DNA of 64,000 nt from Candidatus Brocadiia bacterium (GTDB taxonomy: Bacteria; Planctomycetota; Brocadiia; CAIUPP01): the NCBI GenBank assembly GCA_050015075.1, contig JBEKCB010000009.1, positions 32,001 to 96,000 of the forward strand, given 5' to 3'. The notes beneath the pieces were generated by a model. It was not told the DNA's origin and searched no databases. It worked only from the letters and a program-made list of their open reading frames with translations. Positions 8,720 to 34,474 of the stretch are shown here, piece after piece. The position numbers and the translations under genes are program-made. The number at the start of each line of letters is the position of its first letter. The stretch's first letter is position 1.

Positions 8720-9541
8720 TCATTCTTCCAAGTCTTTAGCCAGGCTCTTGAGCGCGGCGCGGTGAATCTGGCAGACGCGCGAATCGGTCACGTGCAGGAT
8801 CGCCCCGATCTCGCGCAGCGCCAGCCGCTCGAAGTAATAGAGGGTGATGACCAGCCGCTGGGTCTTCGTCAGGCGGAGGATGGCCTCGGCGAGACGCGAC
8901 TTTTCCTCTTCGAGCGATGCGTGGTCCAGCGGCTGCAGGGCCGGGTCGCGCTGCTCGTGCTGCGCCAGGGCGCACTCACCGTCGGGCGCGGCGGAGAGCG
9001 GCATCTCGTCGAGCGAGTAGAACACGTGCGCGCCGGCGCCTTTCAGGTCGGCGAGGTCCTGCGCGGCGAGTCCCGTCCGGTTGCAGACTTCCGCGGAGGT
9101 GGGCGAGCGGTGGACTTCCTGTTCGAGTTGCGCGCTGGCCCGCGCGACGCGCCCGAGTTCCGAGCGCACCGACCGCGGCAGCCAGTCGTCGGAGCGCAGC
9201 GCGTCGAGCATGGCCCCGCGAATGCGAGTCACGGCGTAAGTGTGAAAGCGCACGTTCCGCGCCGGGTCGAAACGGTCGGCGGCGTCAATCAGCCCGACTG
9301 CGCCCGCCTCGAGCAGGTCGCCGCGGTCCACGTGCGGCGGCAGGTGCGCGGCCACGCGGCCGAGCACGTACTTCACCAGCGGCAGATGACCGAGGATCAG
9401 TTTCTCCCGCGCTTTAGCCGAGGAGCGCGCGACTTTGCGCATGCGTCCTGAGTTCGCGTGTCCGTTTTCTGAGGGTTGCCGGCAGGTTCGCGCGCGGCGA
9501 ACCATGGGCTCGGCGATCTGAGCCGACGCGTGGCTGGCCAT
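8720..9541 (-). CDS. FliA/WhiG-family RNA polymerase sigma factor
   Basis: LPLVKYV, GLIDAADRFDP, YAVTRIRGAMLDALRSDDWLPRSVR, EIGAILHVTDSRVCQIH. Confidence 0.92.
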   Translation of the reverse strand: MASHASAQIAEPMVRRARTCRQPSENGHANSGRMRKVARSSAKAREKLILGHLPLVKYVLGRVAAHLPPHVDRGDLLEAGAVGLIDAADRFDPARNVRFHTYAVTRIRGAMLDALRSDDWLPRSVRSELGRVARASAQLEQEVHRSPTSAEVCNRTGLAAQDLADLKGAGAHVFYSLDEMPLSAAPDGECALAQHEQRDPALQPLDHASLEEEKSRLAEAILRLTKTQRLVITLYYFERLALREIGAILHVTDSRVCQIHRAALKSLAKDLEE

Positions 9542-10011
9542 CTGGATTTCCCTTCCCTGCGTAACGGTCGGACGCCGCTTGCAGCGCTCCATCCGTGGGG
9601 CGCCGCCGCCGGCTGCACTTCGATTACCAGCGGAAAAGAGCAAAATCTGTGCCGAGGAGCTACACTCGGCTTTAACTGGAAGGATATTCGAGCGTCGCAG
9701 CGATGCCGCTGAGGCGCCGGATTACGCGATTTTCCGGAAGCCGAATGCGAACATCGGGATGTCGCAACTCCTTGCTTAATAGCCGGCTACGACATGCGAA
9801 GTGAAATCATCGGCGGCAACCCTCCGCCGCGCGCCCGGCGCGCCGATTTGCGTTCAGCGCAAATCCGAAACGAACCATTGTGCGACGACGGCCCGGACAA
9901 GCCCTGTCCGATAATGCACGTTTTGCGGTATTTTTGAACATGTCCGCCGCCTGGCTCTGGAGGCGCGGCAGGTTCATGTGGAACGCACGATTATGGAGCC
10001 GACGCCATAAT

Positions 10012-10083
10012 AAAAGCGCGCAAAGCGCAAAATGCGTCGGGCTTGTCGAAGGCCGTTCGCACTTTTCATTTTGCATTTTCCGC
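10012..10083. repeat. Inverted heptamer element (GCAAAAT / TTTTCAT-TTTGCAT arms) with a degenerate REP-like core
   Basis: aaaagcgcgcaaagcgcaaaatgc gtcgggcttgtcgaaggc cgttcgcacttttcattttgcattttc. Confidence 0.65.
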
Positions 10084-10148: not shown

Positions 10149-12269
10149 GTGTTACACATCCTTTACTTCCATCTGCCGATCGGCGGGCTAAGCTGCCTCA
10201 GCCGGGCGTTTGTGCTCGGGATCATCTTGAGCAGCCAGGCGCTGCTGGCGCGGCGCAAGCGCGTCGGTTTCGAGCAGCACCTGATCCTCTTCAGCACGTT
10301 CAGCTTCCTCATGGCCGCTGAAATCTTCGGCATCTCTCTGTCGCTCCTGGATTCCGGTCCGGAGATCGGCCTGCCGGCGGCGATGTGGGTCTGGTATCCG
10401 GTGCTGTCATCGGTCGGGCTGCTCGGCCTGGCGTTCTGCTTCGACTTCATGCGCCTGACCGGCGGCGAGCCGGACCGCGGCGCTCCGCGCCGGTCGCTCC
10501 GGTCGCACAGCCTGCGGTTCCTCGTCGCGGCCGGGATTCTCTTTGCGCTGGGCGCGCTGCTGATGCAGGCGTCATTCGGCCACGACGAATTCCCGACCTC
10601 GCGCCACCAGATGGGCTCCGTCTCGTACCTGCTCCACGGGATCCAGGCCGCGGCGATGGCGCTGCTGGTCTGGAAGGCGCTGATCACGCGGCGCGTCTGG
10701 CTCTCGCGCACGGAGACGCGCATCTTCGTCCTCGCCGCCCTCCTCGGAGTGATCGGCGCGCTCGTCCAGATCCTCGACGGCCCGCAGGAATTCCTGACCA
10801 CGTTCGCCTTCACGCTCTTCGTCGGGGTGCTCCTGCGCGACAACTATCGCCGCAGCGAGCTGGACGCGGTCCGCGCCTCGACCGAGCGCACCGCGCACAT
10901 GCTGCTCTTCCATCGCATCACCACGCAGCTCAAATCCACCTCGGACCTGCCGCGGCTTTACGAGATCACGCTGAACAGCCTGCTCGACCGCCTGCACGCC
11001 GAGTCCGGCGCGATCTACGTCGGCGCGGATGCCGAGTCGGAACTGCTGCCGGCGCGCGTGCAGGGGCCTTATCCGCCGCCGCTGCCGCTCGGCGATCTCG
11101 CCTCGAGCGACGCGGTCGAAATCCGCACGCTGATCTCCAGCGCGCACGTTCCGCCGGGCGCCGGCATCATCGGCCGGGTCGCAGCGACCGGCGTGCCGCT
11201 CTACATCGCTTCGGCCGAGGACGCCGCCGCGCATTACACCTGGCCGACCGGCGCGGTCCATGTGCGCACGGCCATCACTCTGCCGCTGCGCGGACCGGCC
11301 GGCGCCTTCGGCGCAATCCAGGTCGTCAACCGCCGCGACGGGGCCGCGTTCAGCGAATCGGACCTGCACTTCGCCAGCCTCATCGCCGAGCAGGCCGGCC
11401 TGGCCATCTACGACGCGCGCCTCCACGCGGAGATGGTCCAGCGCCAGCGCGCCGAGGAGCAGCTCCGCGTCGCGCGCGAGATCCAACTGCGCATGATCCC
11501 CTCCGAGCCGCCGCACATCGAGGGACTCTCGCTCGGCGCGGAGTACATGCCCGCCGAAGAAGTCGGCGGCGACTACTTCGATTTCTACCGCATTGACCAC
11601 GACCACCTCGGCGTCGTCATCTTCGACGTCGCCGGCCGCGGCGTGCCGGCCGCGCTGCTCATGGCGATCACCAGCACGTTCTTCAAGATGGCCGCGCCGC
11701 GCTCGAACTCGCCGGCGTGGGTCCTCAACGAAGTCAACGCCGCGCTCACCGCCGAGCTGCGCCACGGACTTTACGTCACCGCGCTCTACGGCGTCCTCCG
11801 GCTCAGCACGCTCCAATTCACCTTCGTCTGCGCCGGCCACACCGACGCCATCGTGATGCAGGAAGGCAAGCTCGAGTGCGACCGCCACCGGCCGCGAGGC
11901 GCGGCGCTCGGCCTCCTGCGGCCGAACCGCTTTCGCGCCGTGATGGAGCAGGAGACGATCCAGCTCCGCGAGGGCGACACGCTCCTGCTCTACACCGACG
12001 GGGTCGTCGAGGCGATGAACGACGAAGGCGAGCAGTTCGGCGAGGACCGCCTTTGCGAGGTCGCGCGCGCGCACACCGCCGACGGCGCGCGCAAGCTCGC
12101 GGCCGGGATTAAAGACGCCGTCCGCCAGTACTCCGGCCCGCACCGTCAGGACGACGACATCACCGTCCTCACGCTCCAGATCGCGCCGGAGCCGGAGACG
12201 CCGGCGCGCGAACCGCAGCCGGAACCGCCCGCGCCGGAGGCGGAATCACCCAGTGCGGAGGCGCCATGA
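10149..12269 (+). CDS. Membrane-bound GAF + SpoIIE/PP2C protein phosphatase (RsbU-like)
   Basis: N-terminal TM helices, GAF region, EVGGDYFD, DVAGRG, LYTDGV, DDIT; GTG start preceded by GAGGGAG. Confidence 0.9.
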   Translation: MLHILYFHLPIGGLSCLSRAFVLGIILSSQALLARRKRVGFEQHLILFSTFSFLMAAEIFGISLSLLDSGPEIGLPAAMWVWYPVLSSVGLLGLAFCFDFMRLTGGEPDRGAPRRSLRSHSLRFLVAAGILFALGALLMQASFGHDEFPTSRHQMGSVSYLLHGIQAAAMALLVWKALITRRVWLSRTETRIFVLAALLGVIGALVQILDGPQEFLTTFAFTLFVGVLLRDNYRRSELDAVRASTERTAHMLLFHRITTQLKSTSDLPRLYEITLNSLLDRLHAESGAIYVGADAESELLPARVQGPYPPPLPLGDLASSDAVEIRTLISSAHVPPGAGIIGRVAATGVPLYIASAEDAAAHYTWPTGAVHVRTAITLPLRGPAGAFGAIQVVNRRDGAAFSESDLHFASLIAEQAGLAIYDARLHAEMVQRQRAEEQLRVAREIQLRMIPSEPPHIEGLSLGAEYMPAEEVGGDYFDFYRIDHDHLGVVIFDVAGRGVPAALLMAITSTFFKMAAPRSNSPAWVLNEVNAALTAELRHGLYVTALYGVLRLSTLQFTFVCAGHTDAIVMQEGKLECDRHRPRGAALGLLRPNRFRAVMEQETIQLREGDTLLLYTDGVVEAMNDEGEQFGEDRLCEVARAHTADGARKLAAGIKDAVRQYSGPHRQDDDITVLTLQIAPEPETPAREPQPEPPAPEAESPSAEAP

Positions 12270-24447: not shown

Positions 24448-24453
24448 CGTGTC

Positions 24454-24702
24454 CTGAGTCCAACGCTATTCACGTGGAAAGGGTACCGGTTCTTCTTCTT
24501 TTCGCGCGAAGAGCCACGTCCTCATGTTCACGTCACTTGTGCCGACGGTGAAGCGAAATTTTGGTTGGGGCCAGCCGTTTCCCTGGCGAAGAACTACAGA
24601 CTGTCAGGGTCGGAAGTGTCAAAGTTGAAGAAGGTGGTGGAGGAAAAGAAAGATGAGATCGTCCGTGCCTGGAACGACCGCTTCCAAGGTCGAAGTCACT
24701 AA
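24454..24702 (+). CDS. DUF4160-family protein (absent from the ORF track; CTG in the start position)
   Basis: Hand translation LSPTLFTWKGYRFFFFSREEPRPHVHV...EAKFWL...EIVRAWNDRF. Confidence 0.8.
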   Translation: MSPTLFTWKGYRFFFFSREEPRPHVHVTCADGEAKFWLGPAVSLAKNYRLSGSEVSKLKKVVEEKKDEIVRAWNDRFQGRSH

Positions 24703-24946
24703 CGTCGGCTCGTTCGGCCTGTGGATTCTCCTCCAAGGGAAGGAATATTTCCTGCCCTATGAACAATATCCCTGGTTCAGGGAAGCCCGGATCGCCGACG
24801 TCCTGAACGTCGCTCTTGTGCATGAGGATCATCTGCACTGGCCGGCGCTGGATGTTGACCTTTGCGTCGAGTCACTGGATCACCCCGAAGACTTCCCTCT
24901 GATTTACAGAGACCGCGCCGCCGCATCCAAACGCCGCGCCAAGTAG
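24665..24946 (+). CDS. DUF2442-family protein (partner of DUF4160; putative TA pair)
   Basis: VEVTNV..GLWILL..KEYFLPYEQYPWF..LHWPALDVDL..HPEDFPL. Confidence 0.85.
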   Translation: MPGTTASKVEVTNVGSFGLWILLQGKEYFLPYEQYPWFREARIADVLNVALVHEDHLHWPALDVDLCVESLDHPEDFPLIYRDRAAASKRRAK

Positions 24947-25024
24947 ACCGCGCTGCGATTCTCAGCCGCAGAGTACCCCTAGCGATATTTCGATTTTCAG
25001 GCTTGACATGGATGCGAGGGAATA

Positions 25025-25042
25025 TTACTCTGTAATGCAGAG
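25025..25042. promoter_or_regulatory. Palindromic operator overlapping the promoter of the membrane protein/wHTH operon
   Basis: ACTCTG-TAATG-CAGAGT downstream of TTGACA (25003), followed by a half-site CTCTGTAA. Confidence 0.55.
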
Positions 25043-25088
25043 TGCTCTGTAAGCTCCCGTCGGCCAGCATAATTTGGAGGCCACTGTG

Positions 25089-25727
25089 ATGGAAATTTCT
25101 TCGGAGGAGGCCCGGGAATCACTGGCGCAGGCGCAGGATGCGGCCGCGCGCACGCGGAAGCTGCTGGCCTGTCGCGGGGCGGATGCGCTGTTTGTGGTCT
25201 GGGGCTTGGTCTGGTTCCTGGGTTACCTGGGAACTGACTTAGCGCCCCGGCTGCTGGCGCTCGGGAAAGGCGGCGAGGACCGCGGAGAGACGGCCGTCTG
25301 GATCGTGAACGGGATATGGCTCGCCCTGATCGCTCTCGGCATCGTGGTTTCTGTCGCCGTGTGGAAACGACGCTCGCCGACGAAGACGAGCAGCGGAGCG
25401 CGGTTGGGCTGGTTCTGGCTGCTGCTTTACGTCTATGTGAGTGTCTGGATCTTCCTCCTCTGGCCGTTCATCAAGGTCGAGGGCGCAGCGGAATCCGTTC
25501 GGTTCGGGCGGCACATGGGCGCCATCGAAGCGACGGTGCCGATGTTCGCATACGTGGTGATGGGACTCTGGCTCGACCACTTCATGATCTGGATAGGACT
25601 CGCCATAACCGGGCTGACGGTGCTCGGCCTGTTTCTGGCACCGGCCTGGTTCTGGATCTGGATGGCGGTAATGGGCGGCGGCTCGCTCGTCAGTACCGGC
25701 TTTTTGATCCGCAACCGCTGGAGGTAG
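25089..25727 (+). CDS. Integral membrane protein
   Basis: About 6 hydrophobic helices; GGAGG RBS; directly upstream of a wHTH regulator. Confidence 0.8.
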   Translation: MEISSEEARESLAQAQDAAARTRKLLACRGADALFVVWGLVWFLGYLGTDLAPRLLALGKGGEDRGETAVWIVNGIWLALIALGIVVSVAVWKRRSPTKTSSGARLGWFWLLLYVYVSVWIFLLWPFIKVEGAAESVRFGRHMGAIEATVPMFAYVVMGLWLDHFMIWIGLAITGLTVLGLFLAPAWFWIWMAVMGGGSLVSTGFLIRNRWR

Positions 25728-25729
25728 CC

Positions 25730-26023
25730 ATGGGCCGCATTGACGAGGTTATACACCAGTCGCTGCGCTTGCAAATCATGGCGTCGCTGATCACTCTCGA
25801 TCCGCGGCAGTCGGTGGATTTCGTTTATCTGCGCGACCTGCTCAAAGCCACAGACGGCAATCTCGGCGCGCATCTGGAGAAACTGGAGGCGGCAGGCTAC
25901 GTGAAGATCGAGAAGACTTTCGTCGCGCGAAAACCGCGCACGTTCGTTTCGGCCACAGCGAAAGGGCGCACGGCGTTCGAGGAGCACGTGGCGGCGCTCA
26001 AGACGATTCTGAACATGAAGTGA
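25730..26023 (+). CDS. Winged-helix transcriptional regulator (HTH_34/ArsR-like)
   Basis: DEVIHQSLRLQIM..ATDGNLGAHLEKLEAAGYV..KPRT. Confidence 0.9.
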   Translation: MGRIDEVIHQSLRLQIMASLITLDPRQSVDFVYLRDLLKATDGNLGAHLEKLEAAGYVKIEKTFVARKPRTFVSATAKGRTAFEEHVAALKTILNMK

Positions 26024-26161
26024 CGCTGCTCGAGGCAGTCATTTCCAGCTTGACTATCGCAGCCGTTCGTTGTGACTATTCGCGGGACATCAAACCTATT
26101 TGGCAGCCCGGCTTCAAAGCGTGAAGGACACGCGTGGCCATCTCGTAACTCCAACATGCCC

Positions 26162-26267
26162 CTCCGGCTCCTCTTTCCGATCAGGCGCGCGAGGGTTGGG
26201 TCTGGGCGTATCGTTTCACAAGTCAGCCGAAAAACCGCTTGGCGACGGACAACTGTTACAGTACACT
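26162..26267 (+). repeat. Promoter-bearing repeat, copy A
   Basis: CTCCGGCTCCTCTTTCCGATCAGGCGCGCG (29/30 match to copy B), ending in TTGGCG-17-TACACT. Confidence 0.75.
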
Positions 26268-26321
26268 CTCGCCTTTAAAAGCGAGCCCTCCTTCGGAGAA
26301 CGGTCAAATGGGAAATCCCGG

Positions 26322-28253
26322 ATGAAGCGACCCATGACATCCGACAACCGCGCCGCAGCACCACAGACCCTCTGGGTTATGCTGGCCTGCGCGTGGATTC
26401 TGGTCGTCGCGGTCGTGGTTTGGGCGAACGGCCTGAAAGGCCCTTTCATCTTTGACGATCTCATCGCGATCCGAGACAATCCGACCCTCCGCCATTTTCC
26501 CGCCTGGGAGAATTTCGTCCCGCCGCATGAGAACTCGCTCTCCAGGAGGCCGGTTGTAAACCTCACGCTCGCGCTCAACTACGCCATCGGCGGCCTCGAC
26601 GTGCGCGGGTTTCACGCCGGGAATCTGCTCATCCATCTGCTGACGGCGCTGCTGCTCCTCGGCATCGTCCGCCGCACGTTGAACGAATTGACGATGGACC
26701 CCGGACGACGGACGATGGTCCATGCTCCCTCGTCCATCATCGCCGTTTCGTTTGCCGTGGCGCTCATCTGGGCGGTCCATCCCTTGCTGACCGAACCGAT
26801 GGACTACTTGACTCAGCGCACCGAACTGCTCATGGGCCTCTTTTTTCTGCTCACCCTGTATTGCGCGGTCCGCGGCGCGTCCAGCGGGCATCCCCGGCGA
26901 TGGCACGCAGCCGCCATCGCCGCCTGCGCCCTGGGCATGGGCTCCAAAGAAGTCATGGCCGCCGCCCCGGTCATCGTCCTGCTGTACGACCGATGCTTCC
27001 TGTCCGGCTCGTTCCGGGAGGCGTTGCGCCGGCGCCTCTCCTTGTATCTCGGACTGGCCGCCACCTGGGCGATCCTCGGTGCGCTGATGATCGCATATCC
27101 CTGGGGCGGCGGAACCGGCGCCGGGTTGGGCCTGGTGGGGATCGGACCGTGGGAATACGTGCGCACGCAGCCGGGCGTCATTCTGAACTACCTGCGGCTG
27201 AGCTTCTGGCCGAGTTCGCTGTGCCTGGACTATGGCTGGCCGATCGCGACGAGCGCAGGGCAGATTTTCCCGGCGGCGGCCGTCATCGCGGCGATGCTCG
27301 GCGCGACGTTGTGGGCGCTGAGCCGGAGGCCGGCGTTCGGATTCCTGGGCGCGTGGTTTTTCCTGATCCTGGCGCCCACCTCGACTTTCGTGCCGATCGC
27401 CGACGCGGCGGCCGAGCGCCGGATGTACCTGCCGCTGGCGGCCATCGTGACGTCCTGCGTCCTTGCGGCCTATTGGCTCGGCGACCAATTGGTCCGCCAC
27501 GTGGCCGAAGACGTCGGGACGCGCAAACTCCTCGGAAGAGTCCTGGCGGCTCTGGCGCTCCTCCTTGTAACGGCCGCACTGGGCTATCGGACGTTCGAGC
27601 GGAACGCGCTTTACCGCGACGCGATTTCCATCTGGCAGGATACGGTCACCCAGCGCCCTCGGAATGCGCGCGCGTGGGGCAATCTGGGCATGTGTTACGT
27701 TGATGCCGGCCTTCCTGGCGAGGCCGTGCCATGCTTCAGCCAAGCCATCGAATTGAAGCGGGACAACTCCACGGCGTACAGCAACCGAGGGAGCGCCTTC
27801 ATCCACAATGACCGCGGCATCGCCTTCGCCAGGATGAACCGCCTCGACGAAGCGGTCCAGGACTACGACACGGCCATTGCCCTGAACCCGGATTATGCCG
27901 AGGCATACGTCAACCGTGGCGCCGCCTATGCGGACTCCAACCGTTTCAATGAGGCCCTCCAGGACTATAGCCGGGCTGTTGCGCTGCAGCCCGATAACGC
28001 TCGCGCCTACAGCAACCGCGCTGTGGTGGGCCTGCGCACCGGCCGCTTCAATGAAGCCCTGTCCGATTGCGACAAGGCCATCGCGCTGCAACCTGACTAC
28101 GCCAATGCCTACCTTAACCGCGCTTACGGCCGGTACCTGGTGAAAGAGTTCGACAAAGCCCTCGCCGACTTGAACACCTGTGTGCAACTGGGCGGCAAGC
28201 CGGATCCTGAATTTATCGGGAAGGTTCTGCAAGCCGCCGGACAGGCGAAATAA
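26322..28253 (+). CDS. TMTC-like multi-pass membrane protein with C-terminal TPRs (putative GT-C glycosyltransferase)
   Basis: FIFDD, RPV, HP, KE, AERRMYLP motifs; TPR repeats (AYSNRG, AYVNRG). Confidence 0.85.
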   Translation: MKRPMTSDNRAAAPQTLWVMLACAWILVVAVVVWANGLKGPFIFDDLIAIRDNPTLRHFPAWENFVPPHENSLSRRPVVNLTLALNYAIGGLDVRGFHAGNLLIHLLTALLLLGIVRRTLNELTMDPGRRTMVHAPSSIIAVSFAVALIWAVHPLLTEPMDYLTQRTELLMGLFFLLTLYCAVRGASSGHPRRWHAAAIAACALGMGSKEVMAAAPVIVLLYDRCFLSGSFREALRRRLSLYLGLAATWAILGALMIAYPWGGGTGAGLGLVGIGPWEYVRTQPGVILNYLRLSFWPSSLCLDYGWPIATSAGQIFPAAAVIAAMLGATLWALSRRPAFGFLGAWFFLILAPTSTFVPIADAAAERRMYLPLAAIVTSCVLAAYWLGDQLVRHVAEDVGTRKLLGRVLAALALLLVTAALGYRTFERNALYRDAISIWQDTVTQRPRNARAWGNLGMCYVDAGLPGEAVPCFSQAIELKRDNSTAYSNRGSAFIHNDRGIAFARMNRLDEAVQDYDTAIALNPDYAEAYVNRGAAYADSNRFNEALQDYSRAVALQPDNARAYSNRAVVGLRTGRFNEALSDCDKAIALQPDYANAYLNRAYGRYLVKEFDKALADLNTCVQLGGKPDPEFIGKVLQAAGQAK

Positions 28254-28336
28254 GGCGAACCTGGTCACCCTCCACACGCCCCGTATCGCCATAGACACGC
28301 TCCTCGGAAAAGGTCCGGTTCGCCGTAACGTGCTAG

Positions 28337-28462
28337 ATGGCCGGCCAAATAGGTCGGTTGACAAACCGCTCCGGCTCCTCTTTCCAATCAGGCGCGCGTG
28401 GGCGTATTGTTATCCAGAACGGCCGAGAAACAACTTGACGGTGGGCACGCTTTGAGTACAAT
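28337..28462 (+). repeat. Promoter-bearing repeat, copy B
   Basis: 54-bp core with 53/54 identity to copy C; TTGACG-16-TACAAT. Confidence 0.85.
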
Positions 28463-28561
28463 ACTGTCGCCGCGAACGACAGCCGAAGGCGCAAAAGCCG
28501 CCGCAAGGCGTTAATTCTTAAAGCTCCTGACCTCTTTATATGCCGCACGGGAATACTGGGG

Positions 28562-29428
28562 ATGAAGCGGATACTCATCCTGCTGCATGAGCACTTCAAA
28601 CACGAACAGTATCTTATCTATCGTCTCCGCGAGGCGTGGCAGAAACAGGGGCTGCACGTATCATGTGTTTACGGCATTAGAGACCGGCCCGAGGCAGACC
28701 TGCTGATTCCGCACGTTGATCTGACGCGAACACCTCCCGAATACATCGAGTACATCCGATCCTATCCCAACGCCGTCAACCGCAATGTGGTGGATATCTC
28801 CAAGCGCAGGATCAGCGCGAACCTGCTTCGCGGTGACGAGGACTTCCGCGGGCCGGTCATTGTGAAGACCGACAACAACTCGGAAGGCGGCTCGGAGGAG
28901 TTCCTGTACCGATGCCGGCATCCCCATCTCGCGTGGCTCCGGGGGAAAGCGAGCGCGGTCCAGGCGCATCTGGCCGGGCATCGTTCCACGGCGCGGAGTG
29001 GTCTGCACGAATATCCTGTCTACAGCAGCCTGGCGGAGGTTCCCGCCGGCGTGTTCAGAAACCGGGCGCTCGTGGTGGAGAAGTTCCTTCCGGAGAGAGA
29101 GGGCGATCGCTACTTCGTGCGTGTGTACGTTTGCCTGGGCAGTCACACACAAAGCATCCGCATCGCCGACTCGAAGCCCTTCGTGAAAAGGCCCGCGGCT
29201 CGGCAGGTGGACGAAGGACTTGAGGTTCCCGAGCCGGTGCTGGACCTGCGCCGCCGGATCGGCTTGGATTATGGCAAAATTGATTACACGATTCATGAGG
29301 GGCAGGTCGCCATCCTGGACGTGAGCCTCACGCCGGGGTGGTCTGCCGGGACTGAGCTGACGGCGCGCACAGTCGGCATCCTGGCGGGCGGCATCTGGTC
29401 GCTGCTGCCGAACCAGGGAAATACTTGA
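28562..29428 (+). CDS. Hypothetical protein with ATP-grasp-like features
   Basis: DISKR, PVIVKTDNN, VVEKFLPE, GLDYGKIDY, ILDV. Confidence 0.7.
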   Translation: MKRILILLHEHFKHEQYLIYRLREAWQKQGLHVSCVYGIRDRPEADLLIPHVDLTRTPPEYIEYIRSYPNAVNRNVVDISKRRISANLLRGDEDFRGPVIVKTDNNSEGGSEEFLYRCRHPHLAWLRGKASAVQAHLAGHRSTARSGLHEYPVYSSLAEVPAGVFRNRALVVEKFLPEREGDRYFVRVYVCLGSHTQSIRIADSKPFVKRPAARQVDEGLEVPEPVLDLRRRIGLDYGKIDYTIHEGQVAILDVSLTPGWSAGTELTARTVGILAGGIWSLLPNQGNT

Positions 29429-29500
29429 CGCATGCGACCTGTTCAGGACGGAGCGCGTTTGGACAAGACCGCAGGGATGATGCTCGCGCCCTTCCCTCAA

Positions 29501-29611
29501 GGTCATTCGGCTCGCTTGCCTCCCGGAAATGTCGGCCGAAGGCCATGAGCCGTTCGACGTTGCTAGCGGCCCTGAGTCCATCGAAGGGCGAACGAAGCGA
29601 GTTGAATGGCC
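29501..29611. repeat. Nested REP-like hairpin abutting repeat copy C
   Basis: GGTCATTCGGCTCGCTT...AAGCGAGTTGAATGGCC arms enclosing GCCCTGAGTCCATCGAAGGGC. Confidence 0.65.
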
Positions 29612-29741
29612 GGCCAAATAGGTCGGTTGACAAACCGCTCGGGCTCCTCTTTCCAATCATGCGTGCGAGGGGTGCGCGTGCGCGTATCGTTTTACAGAAC
29701 AGCCGGGAAAAACTTGAAAACAGGCTCTTTGAGAGTACAAT
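29606..29741 (+). repeat. Promoter-bearing repeat, copy C
   Basis: 54-bp core; TTGAAA-16-TACAAT. Confidence 0.85.
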
Positions 29742-29828
29742 GTTATCGGAGCGATCGGCAGTCTAAGAGGGAAACGCCGTTGGAAGTCGGGCGGGGAAAG
29801 CGACAATAGGTGATGTCCCAAATTAGTA

Positions 29829-30311
29829 ATGACAATACTTATGAAAACATCGTGCAATATCGCCAGGCCTGATTTTATCTTGCAGGTTGAAGCGATCGAG
29901 CCATCGAACACTGGTTTTCTTAAAAACCGGCCGTGTCGGCTAATACTTGCAGATGGGAAAGCTGTTGAACGTGCGATTTGCGTGGAAGATCATCGTGGAT
30001 TCTCAGGCAAGTGGTGGATCCACCCGGAATGCGTCGCAAGGATTGAGGCGTCACGAGAGAGGATGCCGGCGAACCTCGCATCCAAGTTGTACGTCGCAGG
30101 CGAATCAGGAATGGGTTACCAGATATTCAAAGTTAAAATGAGAGACGGCACATCCTATCCGTTCCTTACCGGGAACATCGTTGATTTTCCGGATTTCCCT
30201 GAGGGATACAGCACGGATGATGTCGTGGAAGTATACCCGCACGAAGGAAGATACGAATTCGGCCTGAGGCGGAGCCGGAGTTTCAAGTGGTGTTTCTATG
30301 TTAAAGAATGA
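29829..30311 (+). CDS. Hypothetical protein, lower GC
   Basis: 160-aa ORF downstream of the copy C promoter; AGESGMGY..FLTGNIVDF..PHEG. Confidence 0.7.
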   Translation: MTILMKTSCNIARPDFILQVEAIEPSNTGFLKNRPCRLILADGKAVERAICVEDHRGFSGKWWIHPECVARIEASRERMPANLASKLYVAGESGMGYQIFKVKMRDGTSYPFLTGNIVDFPDFPEGYSTDDVVEVYPHEGRYEFGLRRSRSFKWCFYVKE

Positions 30312-30357
30312 ATCTCCTGCGGAATTCGGCGGACACCATAGGCAACTACGGATGAAC

Positions 30358-30455
30358 TCCCAACACCCAACATCGAACGTCCAACGCCCAGGTACTCGCG
30401 CAATCCGAGCCGCCGACTTGGACGTTGGGCGTTCGGCGTTGGATGTTGAGCGTTG
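30358..30455. repeat. Inverted heptamer element (CAACRYC / GRYGTTG arms)
   Basis: caacacc caacatc gaacgtc caacgcc...gacgttg ggcgttc ggcgttg gatgttg agcgttg. Confidence 0.85.
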
Positions 30456-30800
30456 ATCCGTTCATGCCTGAGCATCCGGGACCTGAACCTGGGGTGATTC
30501 AGGAACAATATAACATTCGAACAACCGGAATTGCCAGCCGGGAAGTCGCCTGAAACAGCGTCCCGACGGCTGCGGTATCTCTGGCGCATCGCAGCGCCAG
30601 GGAGCCAGACCGCGGCGGCGCCGCTGCTCGCGGTGATAGGGAGAGACACCGAACCGACAGATCGGGTCGCAAACTTGGATGATTTGGACTATACTCCCAT
30701 GCATTCCGTTTAGAGGCACATCGAGGGAAGTTGGCGCCTTCGGCACATGCGGGATCGTGACATGAACATGGCTGGTCAAAATGAGTGACAGGAGACTGCG

Positions 30801-34399: not shown

Positions 34400-34474
34400 T
34401 GGAGCGGCGGAAGGGACTCGAACCCTCGACGTGCAGCTTGGGAAGCTGCCATTCTACCACTGAATTACCGCCGC
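34400..34474 (-). tRNA. tRNA-Gly (anticodon CCC)
   Basis: GCGGCGG acceptor stem, CTTCCCAAG anticodon region, GGTTCGAGTCC T-arm, CCA end. Confidence 0.96.

Follow-up and report, generated by a model that had tools for sequence, protein, structure and literature searches.

Site-specific accretion is familiar as a concept from ICE and CIME elements. The Ccr serine recombinases, which belong to the large serine recombinases (LSRs), are associated with att-flanked cassettes that lack a recombinase and lie in tandem arrays (PMC11470126), and a description of tycheposons reports tandem integrations accompanied by integrase remnants (bioRxiv 10.1101/2020.12.28.424599). The window analysed here, a 64,000-nt stretch of a Candidatus Brocadiia contig, holds an island of three genes, each headed by a copy of the same repeat (Table 1), and we put the probability that this island is a tandem array of small gene units moved, now or once, by an LSR at roughly 0.6.

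Table 1. Features of the repeat-headed island, in window coordinates.
Feature	Position	Strand	Remarks
Inverted partial copy of the repeat's left (box A) part	26090..26117	-	head-to-head with copy 1
Repeat copy 1 (E1)	26135..26267	+	nhmmer E=1e-32
Repeat copy 2 (E2)	28337..28462	+	core 28337-28402; nhmmer E=7.5e-45
Repeat copy 3 (E3)	29606..29741	+	core 29606-29668; nhmmer E=3.7e-49
Right-part matches	26159-26183, 28366-28390, 29635-29659		2 mismatches at 26159-26183
Promoter-like hexamers, copy 1	26239-26267	+	TTGGCG-17-TACACT; read by eye, below scan threshold
Promoter-like hexamers, copy 2	28435-28462	+	TTGACG-16-TACAAT; 10/12 in promoter scan
Promoter-like hexamers, copy 3	29714-29741	+	TTGAAA-16-TACAAT; 10/12 in promoter scan
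Cargo gene 1	26322..28253	+	membrane protein, PMT_2/TMTC-like N-terminal part, C-terminal TPR repeats
LSR relic, last 26 codons (VTLHTPRIAIDTLLGKGPVRRNVLDG)	28264..28341	+	HMM E=2.1e-8
Cargo gene 2	28562..29428	+	288 aa, predicted ATP-grasp fold, conserved family without Pfam model
c3-type left arm of junction 3	29497..29605	+	homologous to left arm of L008 copy; hairpin
Cargo gene 3	29829..30311	+	160-aa hypothetical, low GC
Hairpin-type left arm, second repeat family	30322..30465	+	long hairpin 30348-30461
Q-like right arm (A*ASGT*TWGD in frame)	30466..30498	+	putative host-side att half, closes array

An earlier note on this DNA had reported a 54-bp core that is 53/54 identical at two sites, and this is borne out, as 28337-28390 and 29606-29659 differ at a single position, C in one and G in the other. 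The left 30-mer of the core occurs twice in the window against 0.00 expected, and a pattern for its right part gives three matches on the two strands of the 64 kb, where 100 shuffles lead one to expect 0.00. Searched with an nhmmer profile of the copies, the window yields exactly three, all on the same strand and clustered within 3.5 kb, with none in the other 60 kb. The right part does recur at E1, as the note had stated, but it is not the only part to do so; ahead of the conserved block and the promoter, E1 has a diverged att-like left part that includes TGGCCA at 26139-26144. In the shared frame, 26135-26239 translates as HAWPSRNSNMPLRLLFPIRRA..., which resembles copies found elsewhere and matches the metagenomic copies P0130, P0128 and P0125 at 55-65% over 37-45 aa. 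Directly after its core, E2 lacks 11 nt that the other copies show in the alignment. In the inverted partial copy beside E1, GCCAAATAGGT is matched exactly on the minus strand at 26094-26104 (four matches with at most one mismatch in the window, 0.16 expected), and a local alignment reaches the full extent of the feature with a score only about 2 sd above shuffles. The SD-like signal noted on the minus strand, GGAAAGAGGAG, is present, but no ORF conserved between the copies follows it.

Each copy is followed by GCGTATYGTT, GCCG and a promoter-like hexamer pair in the order first described (pattern GCGTATYGTT..GCCG..CTTG; three matches, 0.00 expected). It also holds that each of these pairs heads a different gene, and the three downstream proteins, a PMT_2/TPR protein, an ATP-grasp-like protein and a low-GC hypothetical, are unrelated (best blastp pair E=2.9). 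The first matches Pfam TPR_1 at 2.7e-37, and its Atlas look-alikes (score 0.98), taken as a lead only, carry PMT_2 on 21-30% of members. The second gave no sequence match in Pfam, NCBIfam, PADLOC or PDB; its AF2 model (pLDDT 89) is related by Foldseek to Ddl, RimK and LysX with probability 1.0 and TM 0.5-0.59, and on this model the protein is assigned the ATP-grasp fold. Among 2003 candidates, 375 are homologues of it at E<=1e-3, the few named ones bearing the labels Armatimonadota, Ca. Brocadiia, Syntrophobacteraceae and Smithella. Family searches with the third protein gave no match, and its Atlas look-alikes (score 0.90, likewise a lead only) are hypothetical proteins commonest in Planctomycetota; the gene has a GC of 0.49 and a GC3 of 0.53. 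Just upstream of the island, the C-terminal part of ORF 25316-26023 encodes an HTH_34 (winged-helix) regulator.

Scanning genome contigs with a DNA pattern of the repeat returned 16 loci, one of which, L008 (from a Ca. Brocadiia MAG), has a true copy; at the remaining 15 of 16 the similarity is confined to the seeded 18-27 nt. The L008 copy (L008_a) is identical to copy 2 at 62/62 positions and aligns with copy 3 over 114 nt at 87%, and about 100 nt of left flank is also common to it and E3. A second, diverged copy (L008_b, E=6.5e-8) lies 1.6 kb from the first, between two minus-strand genes and without a good promoter, so the promoter is not a universal feature of the repeat. In both genomes the copies sit in islets with GC3 below that of their surroundings, and the L008 islet also contains HicAB and ParE toxin-antitoxin genes. 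There is no gene in common between L008 and the window, and by these sequence comparisons the repeat appears to travel independently of its neighbouring genes.

The view that no integrase or transposase lies nearby holds for intact genes, as neither the window nor 20 kb of L008 contains an intact LSR and no DDE transposase is present in the window or L008, but it fails for a relic, the last 26 codons of an LSR, which abuts copy 2. The relic starts 10 nt past the gene 1 stop codon and is in frame with copy 2, whose start it overlaps by 5 nt. An HMM made solely from LSR C-termini with DG as their end was searched against the six-frame fragments of the window and the 16 loci, 11,360 in all; it picked out this relic alone, at E=2.1e-8, the next match being at 0.059, and tblastn recovers the relic with P0134 (E=0.002) and P0132 (E=0.001). 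The earlier note had proposed looking for a copy beside a recombinase, and such copies also exist on other contigs, where the stop codon of an LSR gene coincides with the left edge of the repeat. The single-frame translation of the repeat, searched against 1.84 billion proteins, has seven matches, six of which contain the repeat (metagenomic ORFs), a set in which the LSR-adjacent share is inflated because ORF-based detection favours copies that continue a real gene. In P0128, P0126 and P0124, an LSR C-terminus or a relic of one continues into the repeat, and P0128 is 80-93% identical to the LSRs P0132-P0134, which contain Resolvase, Recombinase and Zn_ribbon_recom domains. The best annotated relatives of the associated LSR are phage integrases, at 28-30% identity.

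What follows the LSR end varies. Of 20 LSR C-termini reaching ...DG, seven stop, ten are extended by a short Q arm (WP.[RG]T[QR]T..) and three by E, and members of one 90%-identity LSR cluster differ in which of the three follows. Two further kinds of left arm occur in the island. In the c3-type arm, the 3' strand of an inverted repeat ends at the core; local alignment pairs 29497-29703 with L008 9864-10064, and the fold z-scores are -2.26 and -2.35. The arm of the second family forms a hairpin with an MFE of -64.4 kcal/mol (z=-7.4), and its translation matches the stretch that precedes the repeat in P0125/P0152 at 60% over 63 aa (E=6e-14; 2e-19 pairwise). In P0125/P0152 this hairpin arm is followed by E; in the window, a Q-like site follows it. 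The pattern used for that site, TCNGGNACNNNNACNTGG, is a back-translation of SGT.TW, the Q tail found next to LSRs, and has one window match, at 30475-30492, against 0.04 expected (a match in 4 of 100 shuffles); the match is in register with the P0125 alignment, but the pattern was chosen post hoc, and the site is therefore suggestive only. It is also decayed, and has no LSR relic on its left side. With the LSR end found next to Q or E, and the hairpin arm likewise, all four combinations of two left and two right arms exist, which points to site-specific recombination at the left edge of the repeat. Because the comparison of arms uses translations of ORFs, of which some are spurious, it locates the crossover only to within about 15 nt.

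If the island is such an LSR-mobilised array, each unit would run from an att core (YGGCCA plus about 10 nt) through the conserved E block and a sigma70-type promoter to one or more cargo genes and a right-end arm, the latter being the 3' end of an LSR gene in an autonomous unit, a c3-type hairpin arm or a hairpin arm of the second family. The repeat would then combine the element-side arm of an attachment site (P') with a promoter that points outward, into the cargo. Unit 1 would consist of E1, the PMT/TPR gene and an LSR now reduced to its relic, an arrangement that fits the positions of E1 to the left of gene 1 and the relic to its right; unit 2 would be E2, the ATP-grasp gene and the c3 arm, and unit 3 would be E3, gene 3 and the hairpin arm, with the Q-like site as a host half-site at the array terminus. 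Crossover would fall within about 15 nt past the last LSR codons, units lacking an LSR would be mobilised in trans, and successive units may have been added at the Q side with the newest rightmost. GC3 drops from 0.81 to 0.75 to 0.53 across genes 1-3 toward the Q end, compared with 0.85-0.88 for the host flanks, which fits a newest unit adjoining Q. Canonical LSRs are not known to recombine any pair other than attP and attB, so accretion that is repeated would call for a target site that is regenerated or tolerated.

The earlier note had envisaged either a recombination site with a portable promoter or the ends of a mobile element, and the comparative evidence favours this general view; capture, excision, mobility and promoter activity are steps that we infer. 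Several observations count against an LSR-mobilised array, among them the lack of an intact LSR in the window and in 20 kb of L008, the decay of the Q-like site and the absence of a good promoter at L008_b. In addition, the near-identity of E2, E3 and L008_a extends over 62-66 nt (flanks are identical at 15/31 to 28/40 aligned positions), which exceeds what an LSR half-site needs, and in the wider family conservation peaks not in the presumed half-site but in the block on its right. This block may have a further role, as a site for the recombinase or an accessory protein or as an element upstream of the promoter.

The same conservation would suit a host landing pad, which we consider unlikely although it accounts for several of the observations. 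The repeat would here be a resident regulatory element, block plus promoter, whose left edge serves LSR elements as a preferred attB; the copies would be targets rather than components of mobile units, with the LSR relic as an insertion scar left after deletion. LSR-E junctions are equally expected with E as the B' side, the promoter-adjacent block is more conserved than the presumed half-site, and the left flank common to E3 and L008_a is what an unoccupied site would show. However, a host element would hardly be expected ahead of unrelated accessory genes, in low-GC3 islets of two genomes without shared flanks, and the bracketing of gene 1 by E1 and the relic, as well as the joining of the hairpin arm to E elsewhere and to Q in the window, fit better with mobile units. 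Were the repeat instead a shared cis-regulatory region of one regulon, an operator or upstream activating region with a promoter, multiplied locally through duplication or gene conversion and perhaps bound by the adjacent HTH_34 regulator, the LSR relic, the LSR-adjacent copies and the re-assortment of arms would all be left unexplained. No HTH_34 homologue is found in 20 kb of L008, and identity at 62/62 positions between genomes far exceeds operator-level conservation. We find this regulon distinctly improbable, even with promoter-like hexamers kept in all three copies, a conserved block upstream of the -35, GCCAAATAGGT in both orientations and a winged-helix regulator gene adjoining the island.

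A structured non-coding RNA or leader upstream of the genes, riboswitch-like or an sRNA, is very improbable; the 62-66-nt core hardly varies while its flanks vary more, and a small hairpin containing G-U pairs speaks for the plus strand, but the core lies upstream of the predicted promoter, fold energies are not better than those of shuffles, and the predicted pairs are broken in diverged copies, with two-sided change in only 1-2 pairs. The repeat corresponds to no known RNA or IS end, and Rfam gave no match even at E<=10. It is hardly credible that the repeat is a MITE- or IS-end-type transposable repeat of the Correia-like kind, for all its outward promoter and its dispersal over at least two genomes and several short metagenomic contigs (1-2 kb), as the window copies are co-oriented and clustered and not scattered, a search for inverted repeats found small palindromes and arm hairpins only and no terminal inverted repeats, no target-site duplication is apparent when copy boundaries are read by eye, and a DDE transposase is lacking in the window and in L008. 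A reading of the island as a CALIN, an integron-type cassette array that lacks an integrase and has the repeats for attC sites, was rejected as scarcely tenable, since single-gene cassettes of 1.3-2.2 kb with a conserved repeat between them and toxin-antitoxin genes in a related islet are outweighed by a serine-type recombinase in place of IntI, a promoter on each unit, the lack of imperfect palindromes on either strand (z -0.03 to +1.09) or of a supported consensus structure for the repeat, and no GTTRRRY-type boundary on reading the sequence by eye.

A comparison of the proposed LSR-mobilised array with SCC/SCCmec elements (CcrAB/CcrC) shows both resemblances and disparities. As in SCC elements, tandem units are bounded by direct repeats containing the att core, and an LSR is encoded by some units only, with recombinase-less units moved in trans (PMC11470126), a step that is presumed for the window. 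The LSR associated with the repeat also has the same three-domain architecture; its nearest annotated relatives are phage integrases. In contrast to SCC cassettes of 17-68 kb, the window units are single genes of 1.3-2.2 kb, and the repeat, at about 130-250 nt with a conserved block and promoter, differs from the short att consensus of SCC. Further differences are a location other than rlmH, an LSR gene that terminates on the att core and a Planctomycetota-like host. Like integrons and CALINs, the proposed array would have single-gene cassettes with one site each that accumulate in tandem next to a fixed site; the related islet contains toxin-antitoxin cassettes, and the most recent cassette may lie closest to the point of entry. 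Unlike integrons, it is tied to a serine recombinase and not the tyrosine recombinase IntI, its sites lack the folded palindromes of attC, a promoter comes with every unit in place of reliance on Pc, and the recombinase of autonomous units is proposed to lie at their 3' end.

The proposed array would also share with tycheposons successive integrations at the same site that push older elements inward, with att repeats between them and fragmented integrases (bioRxiv 10.1101/2020.12.28.424599). The tycheposon repeats are partial tRNAs, and 910/937 of the elements use tyrosine recombinases, whereas no tRNA signal is found at any junction of the window array, and the window units are far smaller and promoter-led. 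The LSR of phage phiFC1 is 28.5% identical over 94% of the query. The window array differs from this phage in having no phage genes, one ordinary cargo gene per unit and tandem accumulation, but the enzymes are of the same family, and the attP core of phiFC1, annotated 19 nt past the integrase stop codon, lies beside int just as the attachment site would in the units proposed here.

The repeat that heads three consecutive genes in the window is real, and we consider it most likely, with a probability of roughly 0.6 on the sequence comparisons set out here, that it belongs to a cassette array driven by a large serine recombinase (LSR). The 54-nt core that the earlier note had reported is duplicated as described, with a single C/G difference between copies 2 and 3, and its right part is present a third time in copy 1. 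Patterns representing the right part of the core and its left part were each expected 0.00 times in shuffles of the window. The three copies share the plus strand. Each continues, as had also been claimed, into GCGTATYGTT..GCCG..CTTG (three matches against 0.00 expected) and then into a sigma70-like promoter, as judged by sequence, with two of the three recovered in the promoter scan. Across 5.3 kb, four promoter-like sites were observed against 1.8 +/- 1.3 in shuffles. No copy beyond these three was found in the 64-kb window with a profile built from them.

Coordinates of the repeat copies and associated features (window positions, except where locus L008 is named)
Feature	Position	Strand	Remark
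DUF2442 gene	24653-24946		
Membrane-protein gene	~25086-25727		
ORF with HTH_34 regulator	25316-26023		regulator is the short C-terminal part
Inverted partial copy of left part	26090-26117	-	exact GCCAAATAGGT at 26094-26104
Repeat copy 1 (E1)	26135-26267	+	
Right part of core, copy 1	26159-26183	+	2 mismatches in 25
Promoter TTGGCG-17-TACACT	26239-26267	+	read in sequence
Gene 1	26322-28253		TPR repeats
LSR relic	28264-28341		VTLHTPRIAIDTLLGKGPVRRNVLDG
Repeat copy 2 (E2)	28337-28462	+	
54-nt core, copy 2	28337-28390	+	
Promoter TTGACG-16-TACAAT	28435-28462	+	scan score 10/12
Gene 2	28562-29428		
c3-type left arm	29497-29605		
Repeat copy 3 (E3)	29606-29741	+	
54-nt core, copy 3	29606-29659	+	
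Promoter TTGAAA-16-TACAAT	29714-29741	+	scan score 10/12
Gene 3	29829-30311		hypothetical, GC 0.49
Hairpin arm	30322-30465		
Hairpin	30348-30461		MFE -64.4 kcal/mol, z -7.4
Q-like site	30466-30498		pattern match at 30475-30492
tRNA-Gly(CCC)	34400-34474		sole tRNA in window
L008 HicA/HicB pair	9332-9792		
L008 minus-frame ORF	9789-10046	-	
L008_a, core	9967-10032		
L008 ParE/antitoxin pair	10898-11492		
L008, second copy	11573-11664		profile search, E=6.5e-8

The copies differ from one another in informative ways. Copy 1 is a complete member of a different subfamily, reading HAWPSRNSNMPLRLLFPIRRA.. in the shared frame; loss of its left half through inversion was ruled out, as its own diverged left half was found. 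The inverted piece near copy 1 gives a local alignment only about 2 sd above shuffles. This piece, an incomplete copy of the repeat's left portion, stands head-to-head with copy 1 at a distance of about 20-30 nt, and could be the trace of a recombination event in the opposite orientation. Copy 2 is 11 nt shorter in the alignment than its counterparts (28391-28402 against 29660-29681), lacking the AGGGGTGCGCG of copy 3. Short GCGCG direct repeats border the gap. It resembles a deletion caused by slippage and changes the reading frame for any ORF that crosses the repeat.

Copies outside the window were sought by scanning the genome contigs with a 20-letter pattern from the invariant part of the repeat, which gave 16 loci. 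By BLASTN, 15 of these match over the seeded 18-27 nt only. The other, L008, a 20-kb locus from a Ca. Brocadiia MAG, matches copy 2 at 62/62 positions and then over 66 nt at 98.5%, and copy 3 over 114 nt at 87%. The BLASTN comparison with relatives that the earlier note had proposed yielded one true copy, whose neighboring genes differ from those of the window; no homologs of window ORFs were found within the 20 kb of L008, save through the repeat itself. Among copy 2 (28337-28402), copy 3 (29606-29668) and this first L008 copy, L008_a, the cores are identical at 59-63 of 66 positions, and the flanking blocks at 15/31 to 28/40 aligned positions. The conserved core is longer than a recombinase half-site needs, and neither RNA structure nor a coding frame accounts for it. 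L008 has a second, diverged copy, which is flanked by two minus-strand genes and lacks a good promoter, indicating that the promoter does not define the family. Both L008 copies occupy an islet of low GC3 (0.59-0.71 versus about 0.95) that also carries HicAB, a ParE-type pair and a HATPase/DUF4325 gene. The two toxin-antitoxin pairs adjoin the repeat copies, and such modules are a type of cargo that stabilizes cassette arrays elsewhere.

Several other identities for the repeat were considered. A known structured RNA, which would speak against the earlier note, was sought in Rfam, where searches at the gathering score and at E<=10 returned tRNA and chance-level matches only. Single-sequence folds of the repeat and leader did not surpass shuffles in stability on either strand (z -0.03 to +1.17), and a consensus fold of five copies (RNAalifold, both strands) gave no supported structure, with pairs breaking in the diverged copies. 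This identity was rejected, as there is neither an Rfam model nor a structure supported by covariation. The end of an IS or a MITE was likewise set aside: the repeat has small palindromes but no terminal inverted repeats, Pfam found no transposase domain in the window or L008 proteins, and BLASTN of the repeat against plasmids and phages gave no match. The repeat does not read as a small protein, since the ATG frame (MAGQIGRLTNRSGSSFQS...) is broken by indels beyond codon 18. On the minus strand, the frames that follow the SD-like GGAAAGAGGAG conserve neither a start nor a stop, and a database search with the L008 minus-frame ORF produced seven candidates, none at E<=10. A sigma54 or ECF promoter in the core was ruled out by eye.

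The link to a recombinase came from translating the repeat and seeking, in metagenome protein sets, ORFs that gene callers had predicted across it. A search with the open plus frame common to all canonical copies (query, window 29425-29763) returned seven hits among 1.84 billion representatives. In six of them the repeat is present in the form ..WP.R....PLRLLFPI.RARGA.GRI.LQNS... The remaining hit, P0127, was discarded: it is an unrelated tandem-repeat protein, and its match fell elsewhere in the query. All six repeat-containing ORFs stop five residues past the ...QN(S/I) motif, and in copy 2 and L008_a this position holds the TGA inside the -35 element TTGA, so the -35 is probably conserved more widely. 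Three of the metagenomic proteins, P0128, P0126 and P0124, start with sequence that runs on into the repeat. The N-terminal 70% of P0128 corresponds to the C-terminus of the LSRs P0132-P0134 (80-93% identity), and the LSR domains Resolvase, Recombinase and Zn_ribbon_recom were found in P0134 and P0138. Among annotated proteins, the closest are phage integrases at 28-30% identity; of these, the LSR of phage phiFC1 is 28.5% identical, and its attP core is annotated 19 nt past the integrase stop codon. A repeat copy beside a recombinase, which the earlier note had suggested looking for, is thus found on other contigs, where the LSR C-terminus runs into the repeat; these junctions are known from translated ORFs on metagenomic contigs, many of which span just 1-3 kb, and ORF-based detection is skewed towards copies that continue a real gene.

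The window itself retains a trace of such an enzyme. The 78 nt to the left of copy 2 are in frame with the repeat and constitute an LSR relic, which starts 10 nt past the stop codon of gene 1 and has as its counterpart in P0128 ..VTVHPDELVIDTFLGKYPVYRNAPDG. An HMM of LSR tails ending in DG, searched against 11,360 six-frame fragments from the window and the 16 loci, matched this segment alone (E=2.1e-8; next 0.059). Of an LSR, the window contains this 26-codon relic only. The earlier statement that no recombinase or transposase is visible nearby thus stands for intact genes in the window and fails for remnants.

Comparison of 20 LSR C-termini, from P0128 and three 90%-identity clusters (P0132-P0143, P0145-P0151; P0144, of LSR cluster 5, was left out), narrows down the position of the junction. 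After ...RNA(L/P)(N/D)G, seven of the 20 stop, ten carry a right arm designated Q, WP(Y/R/S/F)(R/G)T(Q/R)T.., and three enter the second type of right arm, E (P0128 and P0136 fully, P0138 in diverged form). Eight of the Q-arm proteins have a 10-residue tail and two have longer read-throughs that differ from each other; the E-arm tail comprises 33-37 residues encoded by the repeat. Within a single cluster, P0132, P0135 and P0137 differ from P0136 and P0138 past DG, which means that near-identical LSR genes adjoin different right-hand sequences, and the switch from left to right lies no more than about 5 codons past DG. Judged from these termini, the LSR gene behaves like one placed at the extreme end of an element that integrates site-specifically.

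The left arms re-assort as well. The translated hairpin arm downstream of gene 3 shares 60% identity, over 63 residues, with the segment of P0125/P0152 ahead of the repeat. Past the common ..(N/H)A(W/*)(P/A)S(R/G)T, P0125 enters E, whereas the window reads *TWGD, which resembles the Q arm (SGTRTWNA in P0137). A back-translated SGT.TW pattern, which was picked post hoc, has one match in the window against 0.04 expected, and is suggestive of a Q-like site at that position. At the level of translation, two left arms (LSR tail and hairpin) and two right arms (Q and E) thus occur in all four combinations: LSR tail with Q (n=10), LSR tail with E (n=3, plus the window relic), hairpin arm with E (P0125/P0152), and hairpin arm with the Q-like sequence (window). 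A third left arm, the c3-type, is common to copy 3 and L008_a and folds into a hairpin, the 3' strand of which runs up to the core (z about -2.3). The window presents three co-oriented copies and a terminal Q-like site, with a core that reads YGGCCA at all junctions. A perfect 10-nt palindrome, TGGCCGGCCA, was rejected as the crossover, as it occurs in one subfamily only and other copies have TGGCCA or TGGGCA. The hairpin in the arm represents a second repeat family whose translation is partly tandem-duplicated in P0125/P0152, and a weak Rfam match to mir-3145 there reflects the hairpin only. Searches for tRNA at the junctions and at 30300-30800 (E<=10) found none, the sole tRNA in the window being about 4 kb off, nor did Rfam or ARAGORN support the idea that the Q arm is a tRNA 3' end in reverse complement.

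The three genes behind the repeats are unrelated, as the earlier note held, with no blastp pair below E=2.9. The N-terminal part of gene 1 has Atlas look-alikes that carry PMT_2 or TMTC_DUF1736, which we take as a lead only. Gene 2, which has no sequence match in Pfam, NCBIfam, PADLOC or PDB, is one member of a conserved family with 375 hits at E<=1e-3, and its predicted model has an ATP-grasp fold (pLDDT 89) that matches Ddl, RimK and LysX with probability 1.0 and TM 0.5-0.59. The few named members of this family are labeled Armatimonadota, Ca. Brocadiia, Syntrophobacteraceae and Smithella, and so scattered a distribution fits a cargo gene that moves. A start context, GGGAA..N..GGATGAAGCG (26311-26330; 28551-28570), is common to genes 1 and 2, and both begin M-K-R, which hints that similarity between the units may resume at the ribosome-binding region. 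The surrounding window is chromosomal core, with priA, mutL, tpiA, secG, gmk, rpoZ, coaBC and the dcw cluster from mraZ to ddl. Genes at about 24.3-30.8 kb have a GC3 of 0.53-0.81 versus 0.85-0.95 in flanking genes. This islet also carries a DUF2442 gene, preceded by an ORF that is presumably its DUF4160-like partner, and a gene for a membrane protein with an HTH_34 gene behind it. These two modules (24450-26023) each lie behind their own sigma70-like promoter, and no repeat copy was found in front of them.

Under the LSR-driven reading, a unit would consist of an att core, E block, promoter, cargo and right arm. The window array would then run E1 - gene 1 - LSR relic / E2 - gene 2 - c3 arm / E3 - gene 3 - hairpin arm / Q-like site - host. 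An autonomous unit (E1 - gene 1 - LSR) may have integrated first, with later units entering at its right junction and the LSR subsequently being deleted down to 26 codons. GC3 falls across genes 1-3 towards the Q end (0.81, 0.75, 0.53), consistent with the most recent unit being the one beside the entry site. A possible role of the hairpin arms is to keep transcription of neighboring units apart. If correct, this would represent a compact, self-expressing gene-cassette system driven by an LSR in a poorly studied phylum, would account for the origin of small accessory islets in these genomes, would be a second enzymatic solution to integron-like gene capture, and would provide a natural LSR with att arms readable from genomes, as wanted for genome engineering. 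It also shows that short repeats before unrelated genes can be decoded through translation and the spurious ORFs in metagenome protein sets.

Taken jointly, the observations allow a broader reading that we regard as rather doubtful, in which this lineage possesses a serine-recombinase counterpart of the integron, a cassette platform. Single genes would travel as minimal circles, each equipped with an att core, a strongly conserved control block and a promoter of its own and with a terminator-like tail hairpin. The recombinase for stacking the circles by a short host site would come from a few units that encode an LSR. The LSR C-terminus would vary with the state of recombination (stop, 10-residue Q tail or 37-residue E tail).

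The array is integron-like in scale, yet it fails every integron test applied. Integrons use IntI, a tyrosine recombinase, with attI at the head of the array, whereas the recombinase here is of the serine type, and Pfam found no Phage_integrase domain (IntI) in 47 + 11 window proteins or 21 L008 proteins. The attC sites of integrons are imperfect palindromes that fold as hairpins and carry R''/R' boxes; the repeat here folds no better than shuffles (z -0.03 to +1.09 on both strands), and the R' motif was absent on inspection by eye. Integron cassettes are generally promoterless and expressed from Pc, while here each copy in the window has a predicted sigma70-like promoter. No description of a comparable LSR cassette system was found in the open-access full-text literature searched. 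Tandem SCC-type cassettes and accretion arrays such as tycheposons come closest among known systems. Tycheposon accretion arrays combine tandem integrations with integrase remnants; 910 of 937 elements use tyrosine recombinases, and the repeats are partial tRNAs (bioRxiv 10.1101/2020.12.28.424599). Tycheposon units are flanked by full or partial tRNA genes, whereas the junctions here show no tRNA signal. SCC-type cassettes are bounded by Ccr att sites, and those that lack a recombinase are mobilized in trans (PMC11470126). Ccr integrates at the 3' end of rlmH, whereas the array described here lies between the HTH_34 and SASA-esterase genes. SCC forms tandem cassettes with Ccr att sites, and the array here has direct repeats with a putative att core at every unit boundary.
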